From the NCBI GenBank assembly GCA_038212275.1, contig JBBQUR010000001.1, forward strand, positions 192,001 through 256,000: 64,000 bases of DNA. Direction: 5' to 3'. Source of the stretch: Planctomycetota bacterium. GTDB lineage: Bacteria; Planctomycetota; B15-G4. Under the pieces are notes generated by a model. That model had not been told where the DNA came from and did no database searches. It saw only the letters and a list, made by a program, of their open reading frames with translations. Positions 1 to 17,237 of the stretch are shown here, piece by piece. Positions within the stretch are counted from its first letter, which is position 1; each line of letters opens with the position of its first letter. A program made the position numbers and the translations under genes.

Positions 1-1395
1 CGCGTCGACGCGATCGACCGAGTCGATGGCCAGGTGGTGCGGCGGGAACAGTCCCGTGAAGAGCGAGGCGTGCGTCGGCAGGGTGTAGGACGCGGTGGCT
101 ACCGTGTCGGTGAAGACGGTGGACTGGCTGGCAAGCTGGTCCAGGAAGGGCGACGTCGGGCGATCGTAGCCAAGGAAGCCGAGATGATCCGCGCGCAGCG
201 TGTCGATCGAGATGAGCAGCAGCGACGGCGCGTCGGGGTGCTCGGGACCTCGGACCTTGGGTTGCCCGAACACCATCGCGGCGTCGCCGGTCACGGAGAA
301 CTCCACGGTGACGGGGCCGTCGATGCCCTCGGGCCACGGAAGCAGCCGATCCGTGAACCGCGGCGCCTGTCCTGCGGCGCACGTCCGCTCGCTGAACTGC
401 GCGATGAGATGGTTGCCAGGCTGCAGCACGATGCTCCACTCGGTCGGTGCGTCGGGCTTCACCGAAGGGCTCGGGTCGGGGCAGGTGCCCACCGCGATGT
501 CGACGGCGCCGTCCGGAACATCGAGCGGAATCGCGAGCGTCTGCCCGGGCGGGACACGGGCCGAGATGCGGTACTGGCCGGAGATGGTGAGGCCGGCGAT
601 GGCCACCGTCGCGTCGTCGGTCGGCAACTCCGAACGCGCGTCGTAGCCGAGCCGCAGCGAGGGAATGGCCGACAGCGAAACGCTGTCGATGAGCAGCGGG
701 GCGTCCAGCGTCGTGAGCATCACCAGGAAGCTCTCGGTCCTTCCGTCGGCGACCTCGACGTCCGCGAAGGTGCGGGCTTCGGCAAAGCCTGAGTCCGCGT
801 CGACGCGCCACTCGGCCTTCGGATGGAGCGTGGCCTGCAGCAGCAGACCTGCCATCGCGGTGGCCGCTCCTGCTTCGGAGAATCGTCCCTCGGCGAGATC
901 CCGGTTCTTGAGGTTGTGCGTCCACGCCAGGCTCAGGTGAGGGCAGGGTCTGCCGGCCTTCGAGGGTGAGCCTTGCAGGAACGCCGACAGCGTGTAACGC
1001 GCGCTCATCGACACGGGAACCTGGCGCACGAGAGCGCAGTCGGGAGGCAGGACGACCTCGCCGGGCCGCGCGCCGAGGCCCGGCACGTCCCCTGCCGGCA
1101 CCAGCGAGACATGGCCCTTCCCGGCCGTCCTCAGCAACCACCAATCGTCCAGCGTGTCGAGATCGTCGTCGAGGATGATCTGGCCATCGAAGGGGCGGGT
1201 CTCTCCCGTCTCGAGCTGGCGCAGCGGGAAGCGCGACGCCGCCGGTGCGATGTCGGGGCTCCGGTCGAAGGCGGTCGACAGGCCGAGCAGCGTGCAGAGC
1301 GCGAGCCGCGCCAGGAGGCGTCCGCAGCCCGTGACGTGGCGCGTGAGCGGGTCGGCCTGTGAGCAGATCTGCAACGGATGGCCTGCGTGGAGCAT
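1..1395 (-). CDS. Sulfatase-like (alkaline phosphatase superfamily) protein with long N-terminal extension; runs off the window start
   Basis: Not in the ORF track (no stop in window). Manual translation from ATG 1395 gives ...LLLISIDTLRADHLGFLGYDRPTSPFLDQLASQSTVFTDTVATASYTLPTHASLFTG..., the canonical sulfatase N-terminal block, with T-x-P-x-H at the nucleophile motif. Hydrophobic stretch near the N-terminus. Confidence 0.85.
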   Translation of the reverse strand, partial: MLHAGHPLQICSQADPLTRHVTGCGRLLARLALCTLLGLSTAFDRSPDIAPAASRFPLRQLETGETRPFDGQIILDDDLDTLDDWWLLRTAGKGHVSLVPAGDVPGLGARPGEVVLPPDCALVRQVPVSMSARYTLSAFLQGSPSKAGRPCPHLSLAWTHNLKNRDLAEGRFSEAGAATAMAGLLLQATLHPKAEWRVDADSGFAEARTFADVEVADGRTESFLVMLTTLDAPLLIDSVSLSAIPSLRLGYDARSELPTDDATVAIAGLTISGQYRISARVPPGQTLAIPLDVPDGAVDIAVGTCPDPSPSVKPDAPTEWSIVLQPGNHLIAQFSERTCAAGQAPRFTDRLLPWPEGIDGPVTVEFSVTGDAAMVFGQPKVRGPEHPDAPSLLLISIDTLRADHLGFLGYDRPTSPFLDQLASQSTVFTDTVATASYTLPTHASLFTGLFPPHHLAIDSVDRVDA

Positions 1396-1553
1396 GGCCC
1401 GGCGACTGACGCAACCTGCGCGCCAGCACGGTGTCGCGCCGGGCCTTCATGAACCGCTGGAAGCGATGATAGTGGCTCTCCGCCGACGGCGGTACTTTCC
1501 AGCCGATGCCGGGGATCGGGCCGTCGCGTGTCGCGTCCAGGCCGGCAGCCGGC

Positions 1554-3365
1554 TCAGGTCGTCGGGCTGCCCAGGAAGCGCAGGCAGGTCTCCAGAAGCC
1601 GCGCGCGGTCGACGGGCTTGGACACGTAGTCGTCGCAGCCGAAAGACAGGCACAGATCGCGGTCCGACACCATGCTGTTGGCGGTGAGCGCGACGATCGG
1701 CGCGGTGTAGCCGGCCGTGCGGAGCATGCGCGTCGCTTCGTTGCCGTCGAGCACGGGCATCTGCATGTCCATGAGAATCAGGTCGAAAGGACGCCCCTCG
1801 GACAGTGCCGCAAGTGCGAGGTCATGCGCCAGCCGGCCGTTCTCCGCAAGCACCACGTCGGTGCCGAGTCTGCGCAGCATGTGACTGATGAGGACCTGGT
1901 TGTCGCGCGTGTCCTCGGCCAGGAGCACGCGGCCGCGCAGGCGCACGGACGGTACGGGCTCCGCAGGCGGCTCGCGCGGACTCGTGGCGGCAGGCGCCGG
2001 GGAGCCGCATGCTTCTGACGGCGCGTCGAAGCTCGGCCGGATGAGCGGGACGTCGTCGAGCGCGCCGACATCCACGCACAGCGTGAAGCAGCTGCCGCGC
2101 CCCGGTTCGCTCTGCAGCAGGATGTCGCCGCCGAGCAGGCGTGCCAGTCGCCGCGAGATGGCCAGCCCGAGTCCCGTGCCTCCGAAGCGGCGTGTCGTCG
2201 AGGAGTCGGCCTGCGTGAATGGCTGGAACAGGGACGAGGCTTCCTCGCTCGTCAGGCCGATCCCGGTGTCCGTGACCAGGAAGTGCAGCTGCGGAGGACG
2301 GCCCGGCGACGCGAGGTTCCTGTCCGGCAGGCTGACACTCAGCGTCACGCCGCCCGTCGCGGTGAACTTGATCGCGTTGCCCGCGAGGTTGATCAGGATC
2401 TGGCGCAGGCGCGTCGGGTCGGTGCGGATCGTGGCGGGAATCGGCGTGCCCGCCGACAGGCTGAACGACAGGCCCTTTTCACCGGCACGCGCCTTCATGA
2501 GCGCCTCGACGTCGTGCATGAGCGCTGCGGGAGAGCACTCGGTGCACTCGACCGTCATCTTGCCGGCCTCGATCTTGGACAGGTCCAGGATGTCGTTGAT
2601 CACGGCAAGCAGGTGGTCGCCGTTGCGGCGGATGACCTGCGCGTGCATGCCGACGTCGCTGCGATGGATGTCGGGATCGGACAGCAGGTCCGCGAAACCG
2701 AGGATGGCGGTGAGCGGCGTGCGGATCTCGTGGCTCATGTTCGCCAGGAATTCCGACTTCGTCCGCGTCGCGGCCTGCGCCTCGAGCGTTGCGGCCTGCA
2801 GCAGGCGCGTGCGCTCCTCGACCATGGATTCCAGGTCGTCGGTGCGCATGCGCGCCTTGCCGAGCAGGTTGCGCTTCTCGGTGAGGGCAAGCGCGAGCTG
2901 GCACACCTCCACGGTGTCGAAGGGCTTCTTCAGGATGAGCAGCTGGTCATTCAGGCCGACGCGAGCGCGGATCTGCTCCAGCGAGTGGTCGCTGTAGGCG
3001 CTGCAGATGACCACCTGCAGGTCCGGGTCGATCTGCCAGAGGCGCGCGATGGTCTCGAGACCATCGATGCCGGGGGGCATGCGCATGTCCACGAACGCGA
3101 GCTGGTACGGCGTGCCGCACGCCATCGCCGTGCGCACGAGAACCAGTCCGGCCTCGCCCTGGCTGGCCGCATCCAGTTCGTACTCGTCGGAGCAGACAGT
3201 CGACACCGTTGCGGGCTCGTCGCCGAAGAGGCCGCTGCGCGCGGCGGCGAGTTCCTGGCGGACCGGGCTGGTCTCGGGCCGCAGGATCTTCCGGAAGTCG
3301 GCCAGGATCGACTCGTTGTCGTCGATCACGAGGATTCGTCTGCGGGTCGGGATGGGCGTGCTCAT
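1554..3365 (-). CDS. Hybrid histidine kinase/response regulator (REC-HisKA-HATPase-REC)
   Basis: ILVIDDN...FVDMRMPPGIDG receiver; FLANMSHEIRTPL H-box; NLAGNAIKFT, DTGIG, GGTGLGL boxes; C-terminal VLLAED...LILMDMQMP receiver. Confidence 0.95.
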   Translation of the reverse strand: MSTPIPTRRRILVIDDNESILADFRKILRPETSPVRQELAAARSGLFGDEPATVSTVCSDEYELDAASQGEAGLVLVRTAMACGTPYQLAFVDMRMPPGIDGLETIARLWQIDPDLQVVICSAYSDHSLEQIRARVGLNDQLLILKKPFDTVEVCQLALALTEKRNLLGKARMRTDDLESMVEERTRLLQAATLEAQAATRTKSEFLANMSHEIRTPLTAILGFADLLSDPDIHRSDVGMHAQVIRRNGDHLLAVINDILDLSKIEAGKMTVECTECSPAALMHDVEALMKARAGEKGLSFSLSAGTPIPATIRTDPTRLRQILINLAGNAIKFTATGGVTLSVSLPDRNLASPGRPPQLHFLVTDTGIGLTSEEASSLFQPFTQADSSTTRRFGGTGLGLAISRRLARLLGGDILLQSEPGRGSCFTLCVDVGALDDVPLIRPSFDAPSEACGSPAPAATSPREPPAEPVPSVRLRGRVLLAEDTRDNQVLISHMLRRLGTDVVLAENGRLAHDLALAALSEGRPFDLILMDMQMPVLDGNEATRMLRTAGYTAPIVALTANSMVSDRDLCLSFGCDDYVSKPVDRARLLETCLRFLGSPTT

Positions 3366-3368: not shown

Positions 3369-5267
3369 TCAGGCCACCTTGCGCGCGAGTTGCAGGGGCA
3401 GGTCGAGACGGAAGCTGGCGCCGGTGCCGGGGCCGTCGCTGTGCGCGGAGAGCTCGCCGCCGAGTTCGCGCGCCGCATTGGCCGCGGAATGCAGGCCGAA
3501 GCCGTGGCCGTCCTGGCGCGTGGTGAACCCCTGGCGGAACAGTCCCTTCAGGTGCTCGCTGGAGATGCCCGGACCGTTGTCGGTCAACGTGATCCGCACG
3601 CGGTCTCCCGGCATGCGTGCCACGGTGATGGTCATGCGCGGGTCGGGAGTGTCCGCATCGCGCAGGGCCTGGTGCGCGTTCTTCACCAGGTTGACCAGGA
3701 TCTCGAGCAGCTTGTGCCGCCGCAGCAGCAGCCTGGGCAGCGGCTCGAAGCTGCGCACGATGGCCACCGGCGCCGCGCCCGGCAGCACGGGCGAGAGCCG
3801 CAGGGCAGCCTCGATCTGCTGGACCAGATCCAGCGGCTCGGGCTCGGCCTTCGCGCCCACGTTTTCCTGCTGTTCGTCCACGAGGGCGCGGATGTGCTCC
3901 ACGCCGCTCTCGAGCGAATGCAGTTCGGTGAGCATGCGCTCGCGCTCGTCCACGAGGCTTCTGGAGAAGGCTGCGAGAAAGGCCGGCAGGTGCCGGCCGC
4001 GGCTGTCCTCGGTGATGAAGCGTGCGAGGTCCTGCTCGTGCGTTGCGAGCGTCGTGGCGAGACGCGGGGCATCGGAGAGGCTTCCGGCGTTCACCTGTGC
4101 ATGCAGCGCGCCGGTGGACACGTTGACGCTGTTGAGCACGTTGCCCACGTTGTGCAGCACGGCGACGGCGACCTCCGCCTTGCCGTCGCGGTGCGCGCGT
4201 TCCAGCAGCTCCTCGTGGCTCCGCGCGAGTCGCTCGACCATGTCGTCGAAGGCTCGCGAGAGCAGGCCGAACTCGTCGCGGCGCTTGCTGTTCATGCGCT
4301 GCGCGAGGTCGCCGTTGCTGCCGACGGCGAAGACGTGACTGGAAAGCTCTCCCAGGGGCTTGAGGATGGCCTGACGCAGCAGGAAGAACAGGACCGCGAA
4401 CAGAAGCAGCGCCGCGACGAGCATCGACCCGAGCACGAAGGTGACGGCCTGGCGGCCCCGGGCCATCACGGCGCGAGGCAGGTCGGCGCGCACCAGCAGC
4501 GAGGGCCTTCCATCCACGGCCGGCAGCAACGTGAAGGCCAGCATCAGGTCGTCGTCCTGCGGCTGCAGGATGTCGTGCTCGCCCGAGAGCAGCGCCCCCA
4601 GCGCCTGCTGTTCCACGGGCTTCAGCGCCGTCGTCGCGAGCGTGATCGGGTCGATCGCCACCCTGGTCTGCGCGCACAGCTGCTGCACGCGTTCCGGCGT
4701 GAGCAGAACACCCATGATCAGCCAGCCGCGCATCGCTTCCTGCTTGAGGCTGTCCACGATGGGGCGGCTGGACACGAGCATGGTCCCGAGCTCGGTCGAG
4801 ACCAGTCCCTTGACACCCACCTCCGGGTCGGTGCTTGCGAGCAGCGGATGGTTCGTCGGCCAGGCCGTCGAGCCGAAGGCGCTCAGTTGCTGCGCCTCGT
4901 GATCATGGTCCGGGTGGCGGAAGCTGCAGAAGGGCACCTGGCCGTCCAGCGACTGGATGCGCACCACGTCGAAGTTGCCGTTCTCGTAGGCGGAGACCTG
5001 CAGGTTCGCGCGCACGTAATCGTCGTCGTGGTCGGCGACGAAGTGAAACGTGTCATCCCAGGACGCCCAGTCGTGGCAGAAGGAATCGAGCGTGTCGATG
5101 TCCTTCTCGAGCGCTTCGATGGCGCGCGCGAGATTCCGGTGCGACTGCTCGGCTTCCAGCTCCTGGAAACTGGGCAGCAGGATCATGCGCTGGATGCCGT
5201 ACACGCACGCGCCGAACAGCACGACCACGAAGAGCAGGCTGAGCAGAAGGTGCGTACGGATGGACAT
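3369..5267 (-). CDS. Membrane sensor histidine kinase (CHASE4-like periplasmic domain, HAMP, HATPase)
   Basis: Start MSIRTHLLLSLLF; two TM segments; DWASWDDTFHF (CHASE4-type); HAMP (RRDEFGLLSRAFDDM); LHNVGNVLN H-box; DNGPGI and GHGFGLH boxes; 3 bp from the downstream hybrid kinase. Confidence 0.9.
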   Translation of the reverse strand: MSIRTHLLLSLLFVVVLFGACVYGIQRMILLPSFQELEAEQSHRNLARAIEALEKDIDTLDSFCHDWASWDDTFHFVADHDDDYVRANLQVSAYENGNFDVVRIQSLDGQVPFCSFRHPDHDHEAQQLSAFGSTAWPTNHPLLASTDPEVGVKGLVSTELGTMLVSSRPIVDSLKQEAMRGWLIMGVLLTPERVQQLCAQTRVAIDPITLATTALKPVEQQALGALLSGEHDILQPQDDDLMLAFTLLPAVDGRPSLLVRADLPRAVMARGRQAVTFVLGSMLVAALLLFAVLFFLLRQAILKPLGELSSHVFAVGSNGDLAQRMNSKRRDEFGLLSRAFDDMVERLARSHEELLERAHRDGKAEVAVAVLHNVGNVLNSVNVSTGALHAQVNAGSLSDAPRLATTLATHEQDLARFITEDSRGRHLPAFLAAFSRSLVDERERMLTELHSLESGVEHIRALVDEQQENVGAKAEPEPLDLVQQIEAALRLSPVLPGAAPVAIVRSFEPLPRLLLRRHKLLEILVNLVKNAHQALRDADTPDPRMTITVARMPGDRVRITLTDNGPGISSEHLKGLFRQGFTTRQDGHGFGLHSAANAARELGGELSAHSDGPGTGASFRLDLPLQLARKVA

Positions 5268-5419
5268 GCCTGCAGCCCGAGGGAAAAGACTGTCCGTCCC
5301 TTCGACCGATTGTCGCGGCAAGCTTGACCGGTGCTGCGCGTAGGCATTGCGCCGCTCCCGCCGGCGTGCCCAGGGTGCGTGTTGGGCCCGATGCGCGCGG
5401 TGCACGATCCACCAGTGAC

Positions 5420-6984: not shown

Positions 6985-7815
6985 TCACAGCGTGACGCCG
7001 AACAGTCCCTTGAGCGCGAGGCCGGCAACGATGGAAAGCACGAAGAAGGCGGCGAGGATGCCGCCCTCGCCACCGGGGAACCAGCCGAGATCCCTCTCGG
7101 GGTACTTCCAGCGGATCGTTTCCACGGGTGAGTCGCTCGGCAGGCCCTCTTCGCCCGGATAGAGGAAGCCTTCCCAGCTCTTGGTGCGCATGACCGGCAC
7201 GCGGCGGTTCTCGCCGCCCACGGCGATGCTCTTGGTCACCGCGCTGTCGCCGACGTGCACGGTGACGACGAGGTCGCCCGGCGCCTCGGTCCGCAGGCGC
7301 CACGCGATCTCGCCCCGGGCGGTGCGCACGGGTGGCGCGTCCTGCACCAGCCCCGGCGGAAGCTCCAGCGTCACGGCGGTGATCGGCACCGACAGATGCG
7401 CCGGATCGAGCTGGACCTCCAGGATTTCCACCGTGCCGACCGGAACCGGTGCGAAGGCGTATGTGGCCTCGAGCTGGAAGAGGATGGTCATCATCGGCAC
7501 GAACATGACCACCATCGGCAGCAGGTTGTGGCCGATGTACAGCGCGTTCTTCCACAGGATCTTCAGCGTTGCGGTGAAGACTCCGAGGATGTCCTCGTTG
7601 TAGAGGCGGATCTCGAGCAGGTGCACCTTGATGTCGTTCTTCGCCGCTGCGATGCCCTTCTGGTTGCTCGCGTGCTTGTAGACGATCAGCGCGACGATGC
7701 CGCCGAGAACGGACCAGAAGATGATGTCGGCCCACGGCGACCACGCGCGCTGCACGCCGAACGGGGCGAGCAGCACGCCGAAGATGGCCGAGGTGATGGC
7801 GTTGAACGTGTTCAT
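6985..7815 (-). CDS. Integral membrane protein, DUF106/EMC3/TMCO1-like (Oxa1 superfamily candidate)
   Basis: TM1 ending ALIVYK..SNQ, helical soluble segment, TM2 LLPMVVMFVPMMTILF, soluble beta-rich insert, C-terminal TM FFVLSIVAGLALKGLFGV; last gene of the operon. Confidence 0.6.
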   Translation of the reverse strand: MNTFNAITSAIFGVLLAPFGVQRAWSPWADIIFWSVLGGIVALIVYKHASNQKGIAAAKNDIKVHLLEIRLYNEDILGVFTATLKILWKNALYIGHNLLPMVVMFVPMMTILFQLEATYAFAPVPVGTVEILEVQLDPAHLSVPITAVTLELPPGLVQDAPPVRTARGEIAWRLRTEAPGDLVVTVHVGDSAVTKSIAVGGENRRVPVMRTKSWEGFLYPGEEGLPSDSPVETIRWKYPERDLGWFPGGEGGILAAFFVLSIVAGLALKGLFGVTL

Positions 7816-7828
7816 GGCATGCGGCTGC

Positions 7829-8023
7829 TCAGGAGATGTAGCCGAGTCCGCGCAGCTTGTTCTTGATGTCCTCGTCGCTCTCGGCGTCCTCGAACTGCTG
7901 CAGTTCCTTCTCGAGGATGTGCGTGATGAACTCCTCGACGGTGGCGTAACCGGCCGTGTCGGAGACCTTCTTCAGGCGCGCGATGAGGTCCTTGTCGAGC
8001 TTGACTTTGCCGCCACCGAACAT
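7829..8023 (-). CDS. Small ribbon-helix-helix (CopG-like) protein with C-terminal LRGLGYI tail
   Basis: 64 aa; KVKLDKDLIARLKKVSDTAGYATVEEFITHILEKEL RHH pattern; RBS GGGAG upstream. Confidence 0.8.
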   Translation of the reverse strand: MFGGGKVKLDKDLIARLKKVSDTAGYATVEEFITHILEKELQQFEDAESDEDIKNKLRGLGYIS

Positions 8024-8105
8024 GGTTGTCTCCCGTGAGTTGAGTTGCCGTCCGCCACCCGAGTGCGGCGGAGCGTCGTGCGTGACTTGCCTGGCTTGAA
8101 GTGTG

Positions 8106-10283
8106 TCAGCGATCGAGGATGGAGTGGCCCACCATGCCCTCGCCCGCGGGCAGCCCGAAGTGCTGCAGGAGCGTGACGGTGAGGTCGGGGAGCGCGTGGC
8201 CCGCGCGGGGCAGCTTCCGATTCACGAGCAGGATACCGGGGACGACCTCGGGAGCCATGAGGTGGCTGCCGGACCACAGGTCGTCGTTGTCCGAGAGCAC
8301 GTCCGTGCCGACGTGGCCCAGCGTCGAGGCGTCGGAGCAGTCATAGCCGGCGTTGTAGCCGACGATGACGTCCGGGGCCTCGGCGCGACGCGGTGCCGAA
8401 TAGATGTCGCGGCTGCGGTCCACGCGCAGGACGACCTGGCCGCCGTCCTTGTCGTCGCGCCATGCGAGCAGGTCGGCCGAGAGCTTCGCCATGAGCGCGT
8501 CGGCATCGGCGGGATCCACGCTGCCGCGCGCTTCGCGTCCCTTGAGGTTCAGATACAGGCCGTTGAAGCCGAGGCCGTAGACCGTCGTGCGCGTCCAGTC
8601 GATGTCGCTCGCGTCGATGTCGGGCACGCCGGAGACCACCACCTTGACCGTGCTCCCGTCGTCGAGCACGCGCTCCTCGACCTTGTCGGGCGAGGGAATG
8701 TCGCCCTCGGTCTTGTCCCCCTTGAGGAACAGGTAGCCATGCTCGCGCAACCAGCTGTTGGTGTGCGCCTGCCGCGTGTAGGGCTGGAAGCCGTGGTCCG
8801 ACATGACGATGAGCAGCGTGCCCTCGGGCAGCGCCGTGCGCACCTTGCCGAGCAGCCTGTCGCAGTTGCGGTAATGATTCTCGATGTCGAGCGAGTGCCG
8901 GGCCGCGCTGTCCTTCTCCCACGCGGGGTGGTGGGGCACGCCGGGCGTCTTCGGGTCGCCGTGGCGCCACTCCATGTGGCACTGCAGGTCGATGTCCGAG
9001 AGATACATGAAGCTGCACTTGCCGGGACCGAAGCGCTCCAGCGCGAGGTCGAGCATGCGCTCGCCGTCGGCGTGCACGAGCCCGACCTGCAGCTCGTAGT
9101 CGTCATCGTCGAAGAGGCCGTCCTTGAGGGCGTTGATCTCCTCGGGGAAGCCCTGCGTCCAGTACGGGCCGAGCGCGGCGGCGAGCGCTTCGGCGGCGCC
9201 GTCCGGCGTGGCGATCGGCTGCGCGGGCGCGGCCGGATCGATGTTCACGGGCGAAGCGTAGAGCTTGAAGCCGGGGCGCACTTCCTTGGCGTAGAAGCGC
9301 ACGATGCCGTGCAGCGACAGCATGCCCATCGGCAGCGCATCGAAACTCACGTTCAACCACTCGCTGAACTCGCCCTCGCGCACGATCGTCTCGGAGCCTC
9401 CGACCCGGATCCACAGCACATCCTCCTCGGGATCGACGTGCACGGTGAGGTCGGTGACGAGGTAGTCGTTCTTGCCCGGCAGCTGGCCCGGCTCGAGGTG
9501 GAAGATGTCCGGCGGACCGCGCAGTTTCGTGTGCACGGTGTCGGGGGTGCCGTCGAGGTCCTCGTCGTCCACGGTGACGAACTCGAGGTCGGCCTTGTGG
9601 TCCTTCAGCTTGGTGAAGGCGTCATCGGTGTACCAGGTGTACTTGCCGTACTCGCCGCGCATGTCCACCGTGCCCATGCCGGAGAGCGTCAGGGCTTCGC
9701 TGGCAGGCACCGGATAGTTGCCGGGAATGCGATAGACCTGCGTGTCCACGCCGATCTCGTGCAGGTAATCCCAGTAGGGCTTGCCGCTGCGGTTGTTGCC
9801 GACGGTCTCGCCGCCGAGCGGCAGCACGTAGCCGAAGAGATGCACCGAGCCGGGCACGTCGACGGACGGCGGCGGCGTCGCCGACGCGATTGGCCGATAC
9901 GTCGCCGGGTCGCGGTGCACGAAGTCGAAGATGCCGTGGCCGCCGGGATCCATGCCCGTCGCGAAGGTGGACCACGCGACCGGGCTCTGCGGCGGATTCA
10001 CCGTGGCGAGCGACTGGAAGGTGCCTTCCGCGGCGAGCCGCGTGAACTCGGGCATCTTGCCTTCGTCCATGAGGCGCTGAAGGATCACCGGGTCCATGCC
10101 GTCGATGCCGAGCACGAAGGCTCCGGGCTTGACGGGCGCATCGGCATCGCTCGCGCCGCGCGCCGCGGGAATCAGAGCCGACAGCAGGCCCAGAGCGGCC
10201 AGCGCGCACGCGGCGGTCGGGAGGCGCGCGCCTGCACGACGGCGCGTCCGCAGTGCTTCGAATCTGGAGCCGCGAGGCCTCAT
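8106..10283 (-). CDS. Type I phosphodiesterase/nucleotide pyrophosphatase-like (AlkP superfamily) protein, exported
   Basis: Start ATG overlaps upstream TGA (ATGA); Arg-rich n-region plus hydrophobic h-region; VLGIDGMDP, PPQSPVAWSTFATG, DLQCH, VMSDHGF, SGSH motifs. Confidence 0.9.
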   Translation of the reverse strand: MRPRGSRFEALRTRRRAGARLPTAACALAALGLLSALIPAARGASDADAPVKPGAFVLGIDGMDPVILQRLMDEGKMPEFTRLAAEGTFQSLATVNPPQSPVAWSTFATGMDPGGHGIFDFVHRDPATYRPIASATPPPSVDVPGSVHLFGYVLPLGGETVGNNRSGKPYWDYLHEIGVDTQVYRIPGNYPVPASEALTLSGMGTVDMRGEYGKYTWYTDDAFTKLKDHKADLEFVTVDDEDLDGTPDTVHTKLRGPPDIFHLEPGQLPGKNDYLVTDLTVHVDPEEDVLWIRVGGSETIVREGEFSEWLNVSFDALPMGMLSLHGIVRFYAKEVRPGFKLYASPVNIDPAAPAQPIATPDGAAEALAAALGPYWTQGFPEEINALKDGLFDDDDYELQVGLVHADGERMLDLALERFGPGKCSFMYLSDIDLQCHMEWRHGDPKTPGVPHHPAWEKDSAARHSLDIENHYRNCDRLLGKVRTALPEGTLLIVMSDHGFQPYTRQAHTNSWLREHGYLFLKGDKTEGDIPSPDKVEERVLDDGSTVKVVVSGVPDIDASDIDWTRTTVYGLGFNGLYLNLKGREARGSVDPADADALMAKLSADLLAWRDDKDGGQVVLRVDRSRDIYSAPRRAEAPDVIVGYNAGYDCSDASTLGHVGTDVLSDNDDLWSGSHLMAPEVVPGILLVNRKLPRAGHALPDLTVTLLQHFGLPAGEGMVGHSILDR

Positions 10284-12598
10284 CGCCGCTCCCGATCGCG
10301 CAGCGGTGCGCGCGCAGGTGTTCCGGATGGCGGCGCAGCGGCGGCATTCGAGGCGTCCCCGGATACGGATGCGGTCGATGCGTGAGCAGGCGGGGAGGTG
10401 CCCTCGGGGAAGATGCGTGCGCCCGGAGCCGAGCCGGACTGCGAGAGCGTGTGCGGGTCGAGCGGGCCGCGCACGGCGGCCGCGTCGCCCTCGGCCGCGA
10501 AGACCGGCTTGCCCTGCATGTACTTCGGCGCCACCTGGCCGAAGAGGGCCATGACCGACGGTGCGAGGTCCAGGATGTTCGGCGTGTCGGTGTTGATGGG
10601 CAGGTTGCTGAAGAAGACGCCGGGCACGATGCGCGGATCCACGCAGTGGTCGCCGCTCCAGCTCTTCGTGTTGTCGGTGAAGACTTCCTTCGGCACCGCG
10701 CCGGTCGCGCAGTCCCAGGAATTCCGGTAGCCGCCGTCGTAGCCGACGATGAGGTCCGGGGCATCGAGGCGGTAGGGGCCGTCGAAGAAATCCGCGGCCG
10801 CGAAGACGTCGAGGATCGCGTGCTTGCCGGTCTGCGGATCGATCAGTTCCTTCAGCCTGGCGATGAGCTCCGCCTTCAGCGCGTCGTACTCCGCGCCCTC
10901 GGTCACGATGCCGCTGGCCTCGCGGCCCTTGCGATTGATGAACATGCCGGTGAGACCGAGGCTGAAGGCCTTCGTGCGGCTCCAGTCCACGCTTTCGAAC
11001 CAGTCGCCGCTCGTCTCCTTGCCGTCCTTGAGGAACAGGTAGCCGTTTTCCTTGAGCCACGCATTGAGGTTCACGCCGCGGCGGAAATTCGTGAAGCCGT
11101 GATCGGACATCACGACGAAGGCAGTGTCGGGGTTCTCGACGACGTCCTTCCAGATGCGGCCGAGCAGGTCGTCCATGCGCTTGTAGACGTCGGCGATGGT
11201 GTTCTTGTGCTTCTCGACATCCTTGCCGTGGTTGGCCGGGTGGGTCGGGTCGAGGTAGCGGTAGAACATGTGCTGCACGCGGTCGGTCGTGTCGAAGACC
11301 GTCGTGACGAGGCCCTTCTTCGTCTTGCTCAGCGCGTCGAGGAACATCCTCTCGCGCTCCTCGGCGATGATCAGGCACTGCTCGTAGAAGGCCTGCTCGT
11401 CGATGACCCGCTCGTTGAGCGCCCAGGTGTCCTCGGCGAGGCCCAGCGTCGCGAACGGCCCGAGCTTCTTGGCGAGGTAGATCGAGTACACGCTCGGGTG
11501 GCTGATCGGCATCGCCGGGTTTTCCGGGTCGATGTGGATCGGCGTCATGTAGACGTTCACGTCCGGCTCGATCGCCATGATGTAGAAGCGCGCGATGCCC
11601 TTCACCTTGATGCCGAGGCCCGCCTTGAAGGTGAGCTGGATCCACGGCGAGTATTCGCGCAGGTTCAGGTGGAAGGGTTCGCAGTCCTCGATCTCGAAGC
11701 GCGCGCCACGCTGATCCGCGTCCACGATGAGCGTGAAGGGCACCGTCATCGACGGGTCGCCCCTCACCATGCTGTTGGTGGGGCCCAGGATGCGCGAGCG
11801 GATCTGTCCCTGCTTGTTGCGGCGCAGCACCGTCTGCTCGCCGCCCGTGAACGCCGCGTGACCCTCATGCTGCGCCGTGCTGAAGAAGCCGAAGGTGCCC
11901 TGGCTGCCGCGCAGGTCCGGCACGCACATGCCCGAGAGCAGCAGGCCGTTGAACTTCACCGGCGGGAAGGTGATGGGCACGCGCTGGATGATCGAGAAGA
12001 TGTGCTTCTCGCCGAGCAGCTTCCAGAAGGCCTGGCTTTTCTGGAGCAGCTTGATGCGCGGCTTTTCCATCGGAATCATGTACTTCCCGATGTTCAGCAC
12101 CTTCTTGGCGTTGCCGATGTCCGTGGACGACAGCATCGGCATGTAGGTGCACGGGTCGCGCGTGAGGAAGTCGTAGATGTCGTGGCGCGACGGGTCCACG
12201 CCCGTCGTGAACGACGACCACGCCACCGGCGACATCGACGGGTAGCTGGTGGCCAGCGGGCGGAAGACGCCCTTGTCCGCGAGCCTCTGGAAGTTGGGCA
12301 GCTTGCCCTCGCGCATGAGGCGCGTGGCGATGCCGGGATCCATGCCGTCGAGCCCGAGCACCACGACGCGCTTCACGCGCGCGTGCTTGAACGGGTTGCC
12401 CACGCTGACCATGCGCCAGACGAGCCGGATCGGCCAGATGAGCATCGTGCCGAAGGCGATGAAGAAGGTCAGGATGAGCGCGAAGGCCGAGCCCGCAAAG
12501 GCGAAGCCGGCACCCGGTCCGATGTACGCGTGTGCCTGCTCCCCGCCGAAGAGCACCCAGACGGCGACGAGCGCGGCGATACGCAGCAGCGGCAGCAT
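10280..12598 (-). CDS. Type I phosphodiesterase/nucleotide pyrophosphatase-like (AlkP superfamily) protein, membrane anchored
   Basis: RBS GAGGA before ATG 12598; signal peptide (AHA) then YIGPGAG and TM helix; VLGLDGMDP, PSMSPVAWSSFTTG, DRVQH, VMSDHGF, SGDH; paralogue of 8106-10283. Confidence 0.9.
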   Translation of the reverse strand: MLPLLRIAALVAVWVLFGGEQAHAYIGPGAGFAFAGSAFALILTFFIAFGTMLIWPIRLVWRMVSVGNPFKHARVKRVVVLGLDGMDPGIATRLMREGKLPNFQRLADKGVFRPLATSYPSMSPVAWSSFTTGVDPSRHDIYDFLTRDPCTYMPMLSSTDIGNAKKVLNIGKYMIPMEKPRIKLLQKSQAFWKLLGEKHIFSIIQRVPITFPPVKFNGLLLSGMCVPDLRGSQGTFGFFSTAQHEGHAAFTGGEQTVLRRNKQGQIRSRILGPTNSMVRGDPSMTVPFTLIVDADQRGARFEIEDCEPFHLNLREYSPWIQLTFKAGLGIKVKGIARFYIMAIEPDVNVYMTPIHIDPENPAMPISHPSVYSIYLAKKLGPFATLGLAEDTWALNERVIDEQAFYEQCLIIAEERERMFLDALSKTKKGLVTTVFDTTDRVQHMFYRYLDPTHPANHGKDVEKHKNTIADVYKRMDDLLGRIWKDVVENPDTAFVVMSDHGFTNFRRGVNLNAWLKENGYLFLKDGKETSGDWFESVDWSRTKAFSLGLTGMFINRKGREASGIVTEGAEYDALKAELIARLKELIDPQTGKHAILDVFAAADFFDGPYRLDAPDLIVGYDGGYRNSWDCATGAVPKEVFTDNTKSWSGDHCVDPRIVPGVFFSNLPINTDTPNILDLAPSVMALFGQVAPKYMQGKPVFAAEGDAAAVRGPLDPHTLSQSGSAPGARIFPEGTSPPAHASTASVSGDASNAAAAPPSGTPARAPLRDRERR

Positions 12599-12650
12599 GG
12601 TGATCCTCGGGAGGCATGCCGGGCTGCGCGTCGCGCTCCCGGCGGTCAGG

Positions 12651-13259
12651 TCAGTCGATGAAATGCAGTGTCCGCAGCTTTTCGCGGATGGCAAGTTCCT
12701 CGGCCTCGGGGATGTCCTCGCCGGGCGCGGCGGGGATCAGACCCTTGAGCTCGAGGTAGCGCACGATCGCGTCGGTCGATTCCTCGATGGACTCCTTGCC
12801 GGAGTCGATCTTGATTTCGGCGTGCTCGGGCGCCTCGTAAGGATCGTCCACGCCGGTGAAACCCTTGATCTCGCCTGCGCGGGCCTTCTTGTAGAGGCCC
12901 TTCACGTCGCGGGCTTCCAGCTCGTCCAGCGTGGCGTGGGTGTAGACCTCCACGAAGCTGCCGTGCAGGGCGCGGATCTCGTCGCGCACCGCCTTGTAGG
13001 GCGAGATGGCCGCGGCGATGCACACGGTGTTGTTGCGCGCCAGGAGGCCCGCCACGAAGCCGATGCGGCGGATGTTCGTGTCACGGTCTTCCTTGGAGAA
13101 ACCGAGGCCCTTGGAGAGGTTCGTGCGCACGACATCGCCGTCGAGCAGTTCCACGTTCATGCCGCGCGCGAGGATGACGCGCTGAACGCGCTTGGCGAGC
13201 GTGGTCTTGCCCGCGCCCGAGAGTCCGGTGAACCAGAGAGTGAAGCCGGTGTTGGCCAT
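12651..13259 (-). CDS. cysC: Adenylyl-sulfate (APS) kinase with C-terminal extension
   Basis: TLWFTGLSGAGKTT P-loop, LLDGDVVR, GFSKEDRDTNIRRIG, ISPY, DVKGLYKKARAGEIKGFTGVDDPYEAP. Confidence 0.97.
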   Translation of the reverse strand: MANTGFTLWFTGLSGAGKTTLAKRVQRVILARGMNVELLDGDVVRTNLSKGLGFSKEDRDTNIRRIGFVAGLLARNNTVCIAAAISPYKAVRDEIRALHGSFVEVYTHATLDELEARDVKGLYKKARAGEIKGFTGVDDPYEAPEHAEIKIDSGKESIEESTDAIVRYLELKGLIPAAPGEDIPEAEELAIREKLRTLHFID

Positions 13260-13352
13260 GAGTAGTCCGGGGGAAAGGTAGGGGATGCAGGACGGGATCG
13301 GAAATGAAACGTTGGAATCGATCCGGCCACGCGAGGGCGGATCGGGCGTGCT

Positions 13353-14336
13353 TCAGCGCACCTTGGCCTCGAGGAACGGAACCTCGAAGACCTTCTCGTG
13401 CATGATCGGGCCGTGCCCGAAGTAGCCGTGCTCGCCGAAGAGCTCGCCGTGGTCCGCCGTGACCGTGATGAAGGTGTTCTTCGGCACGATGTCGTACAGC
13501 TTCGGGAAGACCACCCGGTCCAGGTACTTGACCGTGTTGATCTGGCGCTGGCGCAGCTCGTCCAGTTTTTCCTGGTTGAAGAACTGCGGCACCTTGTCGT
13601 CCTTGATCAGCTTGCCGCCGACGACCTGGCTGTCCAGGTGCTTGAAGACGCCGTGGATGCCCGAGATGCGCGGCCAGTCCTTCGGGTCCTCGTCTGGCAG
13701 CGCGAAGGGGTAGTGCGTCTCGCCGACGTTCAGCATGTAGAAGCTGGGGCGCTCGTCGCTGAACTTCAGCGTGTCGAGCATCTTCAGCATGTCGTTGTGC
13801 TTGTCCATCAGCTGGAAGGTGTCGAAGGCGCGGTTCACGCCGGTCTTGTTGTTGAGCACCGGCAGCGAGACGCGCGCGCCCGTGATGTATCCCATCTCGC
13901 TGCGCAGGAACTCCGGCATCCACAGCGACGGCACGAGCTTCCCGAACTCCATGCCCTCGGTGCCGAAGCGCGTGTTGTAGTTGAGGAAGTCGTCCTTGTA
14001 GTACTCGGACGCGAACACGTTCTCGGGGCTGTGATGCGGCAGCAGGCCCATGAGCAGGTTGTAGTGCGACGGGCCTGTCCAGCTCGCGTAGCTCCAGCGC
14101 CGCTCGATCTTTCCACCACTGATCTTCGCGATGTTCTTCGGCTCCGCCGCCATGAACGAGTCGTAGCGGCAGGAGTCGAGCGTGATCACGATGTAGTTGT
14201 TTTTGCCCTTCGGATCCGGGCGCGACGACAGTCCGCCGGGCATCGGGCGCGGGCCGGGTCGGCCCGCGCCGGCCGCGGGGCCCCTTCCCGGTGCGGGAGC
14301 GGGCTTGCCGCCGAAGAGCTTGTCGATCAGTCCCAT
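13353..14336 (-). CDS. Cytoplasmic sulfatase-like metalloenzyme (AlkP superfamily)
   Basis: IVITLDSCRYD, ASWTGPSH, NVGETHYPF, TADHGELFGEHGYFGHG, EVPF motifs; no signal peptide. Confidence 0.85.
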   Translation of the reverse strand: MGLIDKLFGGKPAPAPGRGPAAGAGRPGPRPMPGGLSSRPDPKGKNNYIVITLDSCRYDSFMAAEPKNIAKISGGKIERRWSYASWTGPSHYNLLMGLLPHHSPENVFASEYYKDDFLNYNTRFGTEGMEFGKLVPSLWMPEFLRSEMGYITGARVSLPVLNNKTGVNRAFDTFQLMDKHNDMLKMLDTLKFSDERPSFYMLNVGETHYPFALPDEDPKDWPRISGIHGVFKHLDSQVVGGKLIKDDKVPQFFNQEKLDELRQRQINTVKYLDRVVFPKLYDIVPKNTFITVTADHGELFGEHGYFGHGPIMHEKVFEVPFLEAKVR

Positions 14337-14433
14337 CGGGAATCTCTCCTCGTGAGCGCGCCGCGGGTCGTCCGTCGGCGCGGGTGCAGTGGGGGTGTGG
14401 CGGCCGGACCGCCTGCGTTGACTTCGCCGTCGT

Positions 14434-15597
14434 TCAGGCCGGTGAGCCGGCCGATGCGGACAGCGCCGCGATCAGGATGTCGGCCACCTCCGGTCGCGTG
14501 AACTCCACGGGCGGACGCGTGCCGCTGCGCAGCATCTCGCGCACCTTCGTGCCGGAGAGCATCACCATGTCCTCGGGCAGCGTCGCCGCCGAGGTCTTGT
14601 TGGTGGCCATCGCGCCGGCCTTGCGGTCCCAGAAGGCGTTCTCGAACATCAGCGGCGTGATGCCGATCTCCTCCGCCGTGAAGCTGCGGATGAAGCTCTG
14701 CGCATCGAAGCTTCCGTAGAAGCTGCCCACGCCCGCGTGATCGCGGCCGACGATGAAGTGCGTGAATCCGTAGTTCTTGCGGATCAGCGCGTGGAAGACC
14801 GCTTCGCGCGGTCCCGCATACCGCATCGCCTGCGGATACACGGCCAGTGCGACGCGGTCCTTCGGGTAGTACTTCGCGAGCAGTGCCTTGTAGCAGTCCA
14901 TGCGCACGCGCGCCGGGACGTCGTCGCTCTTGGTCTCGCCGACGAGCGGGTGGATCACCAGGCCGTCCACGCCCTCGAGCGCGCACTTGGTGAGGTATTC
15001 GTGCGCACGGTGCACCGGGTTGCGCGTCTGGAAGGCCACGATGGTCTTCCAGCCCTTGGCCTTGAAGAGCACGCGCGTCTCGCGCGGCGAGAGGCGGAAC
15101 TCGTTCGCGAAGTCGTACTTCGGCAGGTCGAGCACCCACACCGGACCGGCAAGGTAGTCCGGGCCGATGGAGTCCAGGTACTGCACGCCGGGGTGGCTCT
15201 TGTCGGTGGTGCCGAGGCAACCCCGAGCCTCCTCGTTCTTGTCGAAGCTGTAGCGCTCTTCCAGCGTCATGATGCCGAGCAGGTTGCCGGCTTCGTCCTG
15301 CAGCGCGAGGTCGCTGCCGATGGCGTACTTCGCGTCGCCCTTGGCGGAGAGCGTGACGGGCAGCGGCCACACCACGCCGTTGGCGAGGCGGCACGTCGTC
15401 GCGACGGAGTGCAGGTCGTTGCGTCCCATGAAACCCTCGAGCGGGCTCATGGCGCCGGTGCCGAGCATCTCCAGGTCGCTGGTCTCGCGCGCGTTCAACG
15501 TCACGCGGGGGGCCTTGCGAGCTGCGGCCAGCAGCGCGTCGCGCTGTGCACCGGAGGCGATGCGGTTGATCAGGCGTCCACCATGAGCTGCGATCAT
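14434..15597 (-). CDS. sat: Sulfate adenylyltransferase (ATP sulfurylase)
   Basis: HGGRLINR, SPLEGFM, VAFQTRNPVHRAHEY, MRYAGPREA, HFIVGRDHAGVG, SGTKVR, PVEFTRPEV. Confidence 0.98.
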   Translation of the reverse strand: MIAAHGGRLINRIASGAQRDALLAAARKAPRVTLNARETSDLEMLGTGAMSPLEGFMGRNDLHSVATTCRLANGVVWPLPVTLSAKGDAKYAIGSDLALQDEAGNLLGIMTLEERYSFDKNEEARGCLGTTDKSHPGVQYLDSIGPDYLAGPVWVLDLPKYDFANEFRLSPRETRVLFKAKGWKTIVAFQTRNPVHRAHEYLTKCALEGVDGLVIHPLVGETKSDDVPARVRMDCYKALLAKYYPKDRVALAVYPQAMRYAGPREAVFHALIRKNYGFTHFIVGRDHAGVGSFYGSFDAQSFIRSFTAEEIGITPLMFENAFWDRKAGAMATNKTSAATLPEDMVMLSGTKVREMLRSGTRPPVEFTRPEVADILIAALSASAGSPA

Positions 15598-15609
15598 CGA
15601 AAGGGTCTC

Positions 15610-15852
15610 CTACAGGTATCCGAGGTTCTGGAGTTTGCGACGGATCTCGGCGATGTCTTCCTTGGAGAAGGCGTTCGTCGTGCCGTCCGGGGGGTGAGTT
15701 GATGTCTTCTGCAGCGCGCTGTCGCCGACGAGGTCGCGCAGCACGAACACGATGAAGTCCGTCGGGGACGAAAAGCCCGACTCCGCGATCACCTGCTGGA
15801 TCCGCTCGTAGAGCGGCCGCGGGATCTTGACGGTGACCTTGGGTTCGCGCAT
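15610..15852 (-). CDS. Ribbon-helix-helix (CopG-like) regulator with C-terminal LQNLGYL tail
   Basis: MREPKVTVKIPRPLYERIQQVIAESGFSSPTDFIVFVLRDLV; first gene of the sat operon. Confidence 0.85.
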   Translation of the reverse strand: MREPKVTVKIPRPLYERIQQVIAESGFSSPTDFIVFVLRDLVGDSALQKTSTHPPDGTTNAFSKEDIAEIRRKLQNLGYL

Positions 15853-16024
15853 GGACGGTGGGGCCTTCGTGCGGCGTGGGGGCGTGGAGAAAGGCGTGCG
15901 AAGCGGGGTGCCCGGCTGAGCAGGGATCGGCGGGCCGGCGGAGTGTGGAGGAGGCTGGTTCTCGGTCGGGAGTCGCGGCGAGAGCTTGGATCCGGGTTGC
16001 TCAGGGACCCGATCCGGGTCACTT

Positions 16025-16084
16025 CGCACTCCAATCACACTCCAAAAGGAGTGCGGACTATACCCGCCAGATGCGACGGCGCAA
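16025..16084 (-). promoter_or_regulatory. Sigma70-type promoter for the RHH-sat operon with overlapping candidate operator
   Basis: Minus strand TTGCGC (16084-16079) - 16 nt - TATAGT (16062-16057); CACTCC/GGAGTG repeats at 16027, 16038 and 16048 lie at and just after the predicted start site. Confidence 0.6.
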
Positions 16085-16215
16085 GCACATCCCGGGCCTG
16101 CGGGACGGTGCCTTGAGGCAAAGCGACGAGGTCCGGCCTCGCATCTCCGCGCAGGCCCCGTATTCTGCGCCATTCGGGTTTCATTCCTCCCCCTTCGGCC
16201 CCTGGAGCCATTCCG

Positions 16216-16722
16216 ATGACCATTCGCATGGCACTCGCCGGCAGCCTGCTCGTGCTGCTCGCGGCGTGCGGCACCAAGTCTCCCCAGGCATTGGTGGACG
16301 CCATCCAGGCCGACCTCAACAGCGGCAACTTTCAGGCAGCCAGCATCGGGGCGCAGTCCGCGCTTGGCCTGGAGACCATCAAGGCCGACAAGGCGCTCAC
16401 CTGGCGCGTCGAGAAGATGCAGCTGGACGCGCTGGCAGGAAGCAAGCAGAGCGCCGACATCCTTGCGAACCTCACGCGACTGCGCGCGAGCAATCCTGCG
16501 CAGGTGGATGCGGCCCTCTACGCCTCGCTTGCAGGCAAACTGAGCCAGCAGCACGAGTACCTCGGCGCGATCGACATCGTCCACGCCGGCATCGAGCAGT
16601 TCCCCGAGCAGAAGGCGCGCTTCGAGGGCGAACTCAAGAACCTCACGCTCTCCGCGAAGGCTGCCAGCGAAACCGGCGACAACGCCGCGCTCGACAAGCT
16701 CCGCAGCCTCGGATACCTGTGA
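16216..16722 (+). CDS. Lipoprotein, helical/TPR-like, ending LRSLGYL
   Basis: Lipobox LLAAC; RBS GGAG; paralogue of the next gene. Confidence 0.85.
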   Translation: MTIRMALAGSLLVLLAACGTKSPQALVDAIQADLNSGNFQAASIGAQSALGLETIKADKALTWRVEKMQLDALAGSKQSADILANLTRLRASNPAQVDAALYASLAGKLSQQHEYLGAIDIVHAGIEQFPEQKARFEGELKNLTLSAKAASETGDNAALDKLRSLGYL

Positions 16723-17237
16723 ACCGCCGCGCGGCGTCCGTGCTTGCGCTTGCGGCCATGCTGGCCGGATGCGCGGAGCCTTCCGCACAGGAGCGTGCCG
16801 ACGCCGCTCAGGCTGCGCTCAACGGCGGCAAGTTCGCAGCGGCCCGCGCCGACGCGGAAGCCGGCCTCGCCCGCGACGGGACCACGGCGGACAAGGCGCT
16901 CACCTGGCGCCTCGAGAAGCTGCGCCTCGACGCGATGGCCGGAAGCGGAGACGGCGAGGAAGTGCTCGCGAGCCTGACTCGACTCGCGGCGACTCACCCG
17001 GACAAGGTCGATGCGTCTCTGTACGTCGCGCTCACCGACAAGCTTGCACAGGAGGGCAAGTTCGTCGGCGCCATCGACGTCGCGCATGCCGGTCAGCAGA
17101 AGTTCCCCGACAGGGCGGAGTACTTCGACGAAGAGATGACCCGCCTCATGGATGCGGCGAAACGGGCCGCTGAGGGCGGCGACAACACGGCGCTCGACCA
17201 TCTCGCCGGGCTCGGCTACCTGAGCAAGCCGAAGTAG
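16719..17237 (+). CDS. Lipoprotein, helical/TPR-like, ending LAGLGYLSKPK
   Basis: GTG overlaps upstream TGA; lipobox MLAGC; shares ADKALTWRxEK, VDAxLY, GAIDxxHAG, GDNxALD with 16216-16722. Confidence 0.85.
   Translation: MNRRAASVLALAAMLAGCAEPSAQERADAAQAALNGGKFAAARADAEAGLARDGTTADKALTWRLEKLRLDAMAGSGDGEEVLASLTRLAATHPDKVDASLYVALTDKLAQEGKFVGAIDVAHAGQQKFPDRAEYFDEEMTRLMDAAKRAAEGGDNTALDHLAGLGYLSKPK

Follow-up and report, generated by a model that had tools for sequence, protein, structure and literature searches.

A C-terminal LGY peptide shared by AlkP-superfamily enzymes and small proteins of a planctomycetal sulfate-activation locus: a possible docking arm

A 64,000-nucleotide window from a Planctomycetota bacterium (contig JBBQUR010000001.1, positions 192,001 to 256,000 of the forward strand) contains a locus, at window positions 6985 to 17237, in which sulfate-activation genes stand beside three enzymes of the AlkP superfamily (AlkP1, AlkP2, and AlkP3) and in which small proteins of unrelated folds end in the same peptide, termed the LGY tail here. 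The tail ordinarily forms the C-terminal part of AlkP-superfamily enzymes that have a Thr nucleophile and are not sulfatases. Our tentative reading, which we prefer while granting that it may well be wrong, is that the small proteins carry a transplanted enzyme arm that docks them onto AlkP-fold partners.

The LGY tail and its carriers

In the locus, the ribbon-helix-helix (RHH) proteins RHH_A and RHH_B end in EDIKNKLRGLGYIS and EDIAEIRRKLQNLGYL, the lipoproteins LipoA and LipoB in AALDKLRSLGYL and TALDHLAGLGYLSKPK, and CysC, an adenosine 5'-phosphosulfate (APS) kinase, in EELAIREKLRTLHFID, an altered form of the tail. An earlier, sequence-only reading of the locus had quoted these five C-termini, and they match the sequence exactly; it had also stated that the three AlkP enzymes lack the tail, which is borne out for AlkP1, AlkP2, and AlkP3. 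The portability over unrelated folds that it described is real and conserved, the tail being present on RHH, lipoprotein, CysC, and AlkP folds. About five positions of this short motif are constrained. In the canonical tails, Gly-Tyr is invariant, acidic residues stand before it, and the hydrophobic pattern is L..LGY[ILV].

The counts given here use either the strict motif or Pfam-defined sets. L..LGY occurs 59 times in the 12,611 open reading frames (ORFs) of this 4.65-Mb genome that have a high GC content at third codon positions (GC3), and 19 of these occurrences lie within 10 residues of the C-terminus, where about 2-3 are expected from the measured background rate of 2.4e-5 per residue. 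Among the 44,411 ORFs of at least 50 residues, 19 end in the motif; just one of the 19 has low GC3 and is, for that reason, probably non-coding. All 15 tailed ORFs outside the locus belong to PF00884. Genome-wide, only four proteins of non-AlkP fold are tailed (RHH_A, RHH_B, LipoA, and LipoB), and all four lie within 9.4 kb in this locus, adjoining the three tail-less AlkP enzymes.

The genome contains 55 PF00884 matches, of which 50 places were examined for the tail. An [LIVM]xx[LIVMA]GY motif follows the catalytic domain in 34 of them, and LNY stands in its place in one more. The tail is also present on three PF01663 lipoproteins, and the claim of the sequence-only reading that sulfatase- and NPP-like enzymes bear it in cis is thus right for this genome. 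The tailed PF00884 enzymes open with ..IDTLRAD.. and have Thr at the position of the formylglycine Cys of choline sulfatase (SWTRPAM). T.P[SAT]. motifs are present in most tailed genes, and AlkP3 has SWTGPSH. Neither the tailed enzymes nor AlkP3 contain a formylglycine-type C/S-x-P/A-x-R motif; the Cys-type motif (CxPxR/CxAxR) is found in just 6 of the 50 places, and none of these six genes is tailed. Because Thr takes the place of the formylglycine Cys, the tailed carriers are not sulfatases in the strict sense. Many tailed PF00884 enzymes have lipoprotein signals, and most carriers have either lipoprotein or Sec signals.

The motif does not have to sit at the extreme C-terminus. The distance from Tyr to the end ranges from 0 to about 200 residues in the enzymes of this genome, reaches 169 residues in database homologues, and is constant, at 1-2 residues, in the RHH proteins alone; for one tailed enzyme, the tail falls within 25 residues of the end in 94 of 120 database homologues. 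This spread does not agree with the free C-terminal carboxylate that characterizes EEVD-type peptides. HbYX, PDZ, and C-terminal degron readings of the tail were dropped because the number of residues past Tyr varies, and a membrane-targeting helix was dropped because the tail is short and preceded by an acidic stretch.

Tail-like sequences occur elsewhere. OmpR-type response regulators end in ..TVRGLGYR.. and are also caught by the loose expression [LIVM]..[LIVMA]GY when applied to the last 60 residues, making them a likely source of false positives in automated tail searches. Internal elements follow the SDHGF motif in AlkP2 (NAWLKENGYLFLK) and AlkP1 (NSWLREHGYLFLK), and a third AlkP paralogue (C1:97555-99597) has the internal element ALAELGYLVFL. 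On contig C2, an LGY-tailed sulfatase-like gene (C2:216085-217518, minus strand) is broken by an in-frame TAG and is probably a pseudogene or a sequencing error.

Predicted structure of a tailed enzyme

The AlphaFold2 (AF2) model of one tailed enzyme (P0121, built from a 72-row alignment) has a mean predicted local distance difference test score (pLDDT) of 94. Residues 441-470, which include a helix at 455-463, score 75-87. These values lie far above those of a free tail and suggest that the tail packs against the enzyme. The best structure matches, 6hr5 (Z 39.2, 353 residues aligned, root-mean-square deviation 2.5) and 4upl (Z 38.0), show a sulfatase/AlkP alpha-beta fold with a C-terminal subdomain, and for most solved sulfatases the alignment to P0121 stops near residue 441. 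Among solved structures, choline sulfatase, phosphonate monoester hydrolases, and dimeric arylsulfatases are the nearest relatives.

According to the published account (PMC5870055), the C-terminal extensions of choline sulfatase, phosphonate monoester hydrolase, and dimeric arylsulfatase dock on the core of another protomer. The enzymes with such arms (6fny/6g5z, 2vqr, and 4upi/4upl) have the same fold as the tailed enzymes (Foldseek E ~1e-25, VIA Z 33-38). They differ from the present case in that their arms are long, family-specific, and confined to enzymes, whereas the LGY tail is a motif of about 12 residues found on two AlkP families as well as on RHH proteins, lipoproteins, and an APS kinase. 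The arm-bearing enzymes also use a formylglycine Cys, where the tailed enzymes have Thr.

Locus organization and the conserved core module

Eight genes form a tight run on the minus strand, from 15852 to 6985, in the order RHH_B, Sat, AlkP3, CysC, AlkP2, AlkP1, RHH_A, and memb276. RHH_B (15610-15852) is an 80-residue paralogue of RHH_A, with 30% identity and the tail RRKLQNLGYL. Sat (14434-15597) is an ATP sulfurylase (PF01747, E 6.7e-90, plus PF14306), and AlkP3 (13353-14336) is a minimal sulfatase-fold enzyme of 327 residues with a weak PF00884 match (E 3.1e-7). CysC (12651-13259; PF01583, E 8.9e-62) bears a 27-residue acidic extension ending LRTLHFID. AlkP2 (10280-12598) and AlkP1 (8106-10283) are both PF01663 enzymes (Pfam E 2e-31 and 1.3e-29, respectively), and the ATG of AlkP1 overlaps the stop codon of AlkP2; the start of AlkP2 was set at Met33 of the ORF 10280-12694, from the point at which orthologue alignments begin. 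RHH_A (7829-8023) has 64 residues, with an acidic linker and the tail KLRGLGYIS. It is followed by memb276 (6985-7815), a polytopic membrane protein without a tail that lies downstream of RHH_A in all related loci.

The lipoprotein genes are on the plus strand, divergent from this run. LipoA (16216-16722) encodes a helical lipoprotein with the lipobox LLAAC and the tail LRSLGYL, and LipoB (16719-17237) encodes its tandem paralogue, with the lipobox MLAGC and the tail LAGLGYLSKPK. Neither protein has a family match in Pfam or NCBIfam; LipoB has a TPR_14 match under threshold (E 0.0016). The two genes overlap by 4 nucleotides and represent a tandem duplication, with a single copy in most relatives and two hits in one related locus (L048). 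Just upstream of the window, two paralogous LGY-tailed, Thr-type sulfatase-like genes (C1:188201-193446) both end in ..LIELGYVEAAR, and window positions 1-1446 (minus strand) hold the N-terminal part of one of them. A hybrid histidine kinase (1554-3365) and a CHASE4-HAMP histidine kinase (3369-5321) lie between this pair and the locus.

The whole locus is syntenic in genomes of the same family and complete in seven fetched loci. The sequence-only reading had staked its case on tails that are kept in orthologues and on synteny in other genomes, and both are found: within the family, the tail is retained by RHH_A (7/7), RHH_B (9/9), and the lipoprotein (9/9), and gene order is kept, while the core described below extends over phyla. 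RHH_A loci are present in at least 511 species genomes (one genome scanned per species), and the cross-phylum counts given here refer to the best 80 of them. By record title, these 80 come from Planctomycetota, Acidobacteriota, Myxococcota, Thermodesulfobacteriota, Eiseniibacteriota, and others. Rohdeia mirabilis Pla163 is a cultured carrier of the core module.

In all 80 loci, RHH_A ends in the tail and memb276 follows directly. An AlkP1-type gene precedes RHH_A in 78 loci and two tandem AlkP genes do so in 75, the exceptions being contig ends. RHH_A is 66-98% identical over phyla and is conserved far beyond the enzymes; the acidic linker ahead of its tail varies while the tail itself stays invariant. 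The tail ends 121 of 149 representatives of the RHH family. RHH_B retains it in 12 of 13 wider loci, the remaining one ending LQKLGSL. AlkP3 orthologues, found in 25 of 40 relatives (E 3.7e-106 or better), have invariant ends without a tail. The conserved core is AlkP2, AlkP1, RHH_A, and memb276, and Sat, CysC, AlkP3, RHH_B, and the lipoprotein are accessory; the first four of these are absent from most core loci. An unfused minimal trio, AlkP2-RHH_A-memb276, occurs in two loci (L157 and L193). The single operon-encoded machine of the sequence-only reading is made less likely, as the locus consists of two or three joined modules in which the genes for 3'-phosphoadenosine 5'-phosphosulfate (PAPS) synthesis are accessory.

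These patterns bear on the alternative that the LGY helix has no shared partner and is a self-contained capping or oligomerization element, spread by convergence or by transfer of short segments. The brevity of the motif would allow this, and similar sequences do exist in the ..VRGLGYR. ending of OmpR-type proteins, in the normal last helix of some APS kinases (LEKLGYIG), and in the internal WL(K/R)E(N/H)GYLFL pattern of AlkP1 and AlkP2. Such an element is nonetheless difficult to reconcile with the confinement of all four non-AlkP carriers of the genome to 9.4 kb beside AlkP enzymes, with the invariance of the RHH_A tail next to a varying linker, or with the gain of a CysC tail only in this locus context. 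We regard this explanation as improbable.

AlkP enzymes and the membrane protein memb276

AlkP1 and AlkP2 match PF01663 with 104.3 and 110.3 bits (cut-off 23), in two stretches around a large insertion. Residues D60, S99, D475, and H476 of AlkP2 are invariant in a 41-sequence alignment and are candidate metal ligands and nucleophile. AlkP3 matches the STM4013 family with 62.7 bits, below the cut-off of 250. It has the Thr-type motif and no signal peptide, and it ends ahead of the C-terminal subdomain.

The N-terminal signal peptide of AlkP1 predicts a periplasmic enzyme, and its orthologues have Sec or lipoprotein signals. The N-terminus of AlkP2 comprises a signal-like segment, an invariant YIGPGAG, and one transmembrane helix followed by a Lys/Arg-rich stretch, which predicts a cytoplasmic location for the catalytic domain. 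RHH_A, RHH_B, CysC, and AlkP3 have no signal peptide. Judged by these signals, the compartments of the tail carriers and of the tail-less AlkP enzymes appear to match. The envelope-spanning layout of the sequence-only reading is plausible in this respect, with AlkP2 predicted inside, AlkP1 an exported lipoprotein, and memb276 polytopic.

For memb276, no family was found in Pfam or NCBIfam. Its AF2 model (pLDDT 93) consists of a helix, a transmembrane helix, a helical hairpin, a second transmembrane helix, a beta domain, and a third transmembrane helix. The charge distribution predicts that the hairpin is cytoplasmic and the beta domain periplasmic. In Foldseek, no PDB entry matched at E 0.001 or better; the best partial matches are Ig/filamin-like (E 0.006 or worse, none significant), and some of these entries are peptide complexes. 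EMC3_TMCO1 was detected in 2 of 41 memb276 members at E 0.12, in a scan that admitted E values up to 1, and an Atlas cluster containing EMC3_TMCO1 (score 0.86) is a lead only. The wide VIA comparison returned only helical-hairpin matches at Z 7-8 (eg, chain 8 of the multipass-translocon entry 7tut, Z 7.6 over 133 residues), which is below the meaningful level for helical proteins. One possibility is that memb276 assists AlkP2, with its unusual N-out anchor, in the manner of an insertase, the EMC3/TMCO1 (Oxa1-type) leads being weak and non-significant.

The beta domain also enters into a second alternative, in which the tagged proteins are gathered by a common receptor of non-AlkP fold that binds the tail. 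This receptor would be a scaffold built of tetratricopeptide repeats (TPR) or other helical repeats, or else an Ig-like domain in the periplasm, of the kind that memb276 may have. The weak filamin-type matches of memb276, some of them to peptide complexes, speak for this idea. In addition, one tailed enzyme (C1:47648) runs straight into TPR-like repeats past its LGY helix, the tailed lipoproteins are helical-repeat proteins with the subthreshold TPR_14 match, and genomes in which no core module was found also have tailed enzymes. However, the carriers are distributed over two compartments, with RHH proteins and CysC in the cytoplasm and lipoproteins and enzymes in the periplasm, and one soluble receptor cannot serve both. 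The variable distance from Tyr to the end makes a clamp on the free carboxylate unlikely, the conserved core holds no TPR gene, and TPR-like sequence follows the helix in just one of the tailed enzymes examined in this genome. A common receptor is an unlikely explanation.

RHH proteins, AlkP2-RHH_A fusions, and operator-like repeats

Neither RHH_A nor RHH_B has a Pfam match. RHH_A resembles the N-terminal domain of NikR weakly (E 1e-3, 19 bits, far below the cut-off), and some sources label its orthologues as CopG/Arc/MetJ family. An operator-like array of ~11-bp repeats lies at 16024-16056, in the promoter region of the divergent genes RHH_B and LipoA, and consists of direct copies CGCACTCCAA and TCACACTCCAA followed by the inverted copy GGAGTGCG. 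Of 13 other loci, 12 have GCACTCC/GGAGTG repeats with the consensus GCACTCCAATCGGAGTGTCATTGGAGTGC ahead of RHH_B. Given this conservation, the RHH proteins are probably genuine DNA binders. By-eye inspection of 24 core-only loci found no operator upstream of AlkP2.

Natural fusions connect the RHH protein to one particular enzyme. In the P0365 cluster, AlkP2 and RHH_A are encoded by one ORF in all four members, which are 99% identical and differ just in the called start. The same arrangement is found in two metagenome contigs whose proteins are 73% and 83% identical to P0365. These fused ORFs (L154:7830-10298 and L155:219-2675) encode about 820 residues, with no AlkP1 between the two parts and memb276 next. 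The linkers differ between the sequences, and all end in ..LQGLGY[LI]S. The fusion clade is new in this analysis and comprises P0365, L154, and L155 only; two longer RHH ORFs (P0257 and P0260) were set aside as single records with odd junctions that may be run-on calls. On these sequence comparisons, RHH_A and AlkP2 form the best-supported candidate docking pair.

The CysC tail and activated sulfate

In the loci of the window's own family, all nine CysC proteins have the acidic extension, which ends in L.xL[NQKS]F in eight and in the canonical RLKSLGYL in one. Canonical ..LGYL endings are present on CysC in L039 and in an Acidobacteriota locus (L109). The extension, as far as the sequences tell, is a real cousin of the tail that was gained repeatedly in separate lineages, only within this locus context, and is not a constant of the system. 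The tail variant that the sequence-only reading had noticed on CysC is therefore present and conserved in the window's family, and it is not general, being absent from nine other Planctomycetota loci.

Sat and APS kinase are each encoded once in the genome, both in this locus, and neither PAPS reductase nor sulfite reductase (PF01507 and PF01077) was found in the 91%-complete genome. These results uphold the earlier view that Sat and CysC do not serve assimilation. No sulfotransferase was found among the 45 window ORFs scanned; the single PF13469/PF00685 sulfotransferase of the genome is on contig C2, untailed, and unlinked to the locus. Across the best 80 loci, Sat/CysC is present in 22, a small PF13469-like sulfotransferase in 35, and either of them in 55. 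The small sulfotransferase has about 200 residues and the P-loop SGLPRSGTS, lacks the LGY tail, and adjoins the core (eg, L056:4003-4611, minus strand). In Acidobacteriota it is upstream of AlkP2 and divergent from it, and in Myxococcota-type loci it comes immediately after memb276.

The sequence-only reading had gone further and proposed that the tails assemble a PAPS-channelling, envelope-spanning machine for sulfation or sulfate relay, with AlkP folds carrying the sulfuryl group. The recurrent link to PAPS over phyla, the failure to find PAPS reductase and sulfite reductase in this genome, and the predicted inside/outside arrangement of AlkP2, AlkP1, and memb276 are in keeping with such a machine. 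The channelling element finds no support, however, since only a few lineages have the CysC tail, which leaves this part as speculation. Furthermore, most core loci lack Sat, CysC, AlkP3, and RHH_B, the PAPS consumer beside the core is an ordinary P-loop sulfotransferase that in this genome lies elsewhere, and there is no sign of sulfuryl transfer by AlkP1, AlkP2, or AlkP3. The complete proposal appears quite improbable.

PAPS synthesis in the locus is also relevant to the idea that the invariant Tyr is a site of covalent modification (sulfation, phosphorylation, or nucleotidylation by enzymes of the locus) or of proteolysis, with the tail carriers as substrates. AlkP-superfamily enzymes act through covalent intermediates, Gly-Tyr is invariant and preceded by acidic residues in the canonical tails, and a small sulfotransferase accompanies related loci. 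Yet Phe, which cannot be modified in that manner, replaces Tyr in eight of the nine CysC variants of the window's family. Most carriers are periplasmic, whereas PAPS is cytoplasmic, and the L..LGY[ILV] pattern resembles a buried packing motif. This reading is very improbable.

A docking model and its difficulties

We return to the tentative reading of the tail as a transplanted arm. According to this model, the LGY peptide, with its acidic linker, short helix, and Gly-Tyr-hydrophobic ending, would be the native C-terminal arm of Thr/Ser-nucleophile AlkP-superfamily envelope enzymes, in which it would pack on the AlkP-fold core of its own or of a partner protomer. In the module AlkP2-(AlkP1)-RHH_A-memb276 and its add-on PAPS genes, small proteins that are not enzymes would have acquired the arm. 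In the cytoplasm, RHH_A, RHH_B, and, in some lineages, CysC would dock on AlkP2 or AlkP3, and in the periplasm the lipoprotein would dock on AlkP1, each carrier thus meeting a tail-less partner in its own compartment. Docking of the RHH protein would couple operator binding to the state of the membrane enzyme, in the manner of a split PutA. The enzymes of the module probably modify an envelope component in a PAPS-consuming pathway. We infer the compartments, the contact between tail and AlkP core, and the role of the enzymes; that the tail would dock in trans on an AlkP fold is a plausible proposal.

Several observations weigh against the model. No contact between a tail and an AlkP fold was seen in any result. 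A complex prediction that combined AlkP2 residues 40-700, memb276, and the last 30 residues of RHH_A scored 0.12 and 0.03 against a mark of 0.32, a result that speaks neither for nor against binding. For docking in cis, the evidence is the per-residue AF2 confidence of P0121. AlkP1 and AlkP2 are PF01663 proteins with a large insertion, whereas most cis carriers of the tail belong to PF00884. The sequence past the LGY helix in the enzymes varies (none, low-complexity, TPR-like, or another region of about 155 residues), which fits a module boundary equally well as a docking tag. The tail persists in the covalent AlkP2-RHH_A fusions, and simple tethering to AlkP2 consequently cannot be its whole role. 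The nine Planctomycetota loci whose CysC has no extension belong to the same list.

Genomes of the same order add a further difficulty. Four of them (91-94% complete) gave no RHH_A hit, and their AlkP2 paralogues are just 38-40% identical; LGY-tailed Thr-type ORFs are nevertheless present in three of the four (7 of 16 ORFs, by a crude filter). The enzymes of the module therefore cannot be the general receptor of the tail; this part must fall to the AlkP cores of the tailed enzymes themselves or to some other common factor.

A more ambitious version of the docking model can be formulated, in which the LGY helix is a general AlkP docking tag that plugs RHH_A, the lipoprotein, and some CysC proteins into a PAPS-dependent, membrane-spanning machine for envelope modification. 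AlkP2 would lie inside, AlkP1 outside, and memb276 would be insertase-like; occupancy would be read by transcription, and the AlkP enzymes would perform a new sulfation-linked chemistry in Planctomycetota, Acidobacteriota, Myxococcota, and others. Taken as a whole, this version is rather doubtful.

Comparison with known systems

Literature searches found no description of the motif or of the gene cluster. The known systems that come closest each share part of the arrangement. PutA has an N-terminal RHH DNA-binding domain fused to a membrane-associating proline dehydrogenase. The likeness lies in an RHH repressor domain joined to a membrane-associated enzyme, represented here by the single-ORF AlkP2-RHH_A fusions and the operator-like array; the differences are that the RHH protein is usually a separate protein of 64 residues or a C-terminal fusion, that it has the extra tail, and that switching is putative. 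Rhizobial nodP/nodQ/nodH form a dedicated sulfation module, and the present locus likewise encodes an ATP sulfurylase and an APS kinase of its own that do not belong to cysteine assimilation. Unlike nodPQH, the window has no sulfotransferase, and the genes conserved alongside encode two PF01663 enzymes, an RHH protein, and a membrane protein.

Short docking and cargo tags are known from the C-terminal tip of single-stranded DNA-binding protein (SSB), from the EEVD motif of Hsp70 with its TPR partners, and from encapsulation peptides. As with these, an acidic flexible linker and a short hydrophobic motif are found on proteins of unrelated folds. The LGY tail departs from them in that its carriers are in both the cytoplasm and the periplasm and the motif may sit off the extreme C-terminus. 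With regard to encapsulation, a Pfam search of the 45 window ORFs, the only part of the genome scanned for shell genes, found no shell family.

Implications

If the tail is a docking tag, it would be a simple, transferable handle by which a very large family of envelope enzymes is joined with regulators and accessory proteins. The tailed enzymes are almost wholly uncharacterized and are routinely misannotated as sulfatases despite having no sulfatase nucleophile, and the tag itself has no annotation. The module has no known function, despite its presence in at least 511 species genomes, and could serve as a way into an envelope pathway that is linked to sulfation and so far unstudied. In addition, it presents a candidate case of enzyme-coupled gene control by an RHH protein, for which the natural fusions may serve as guides.

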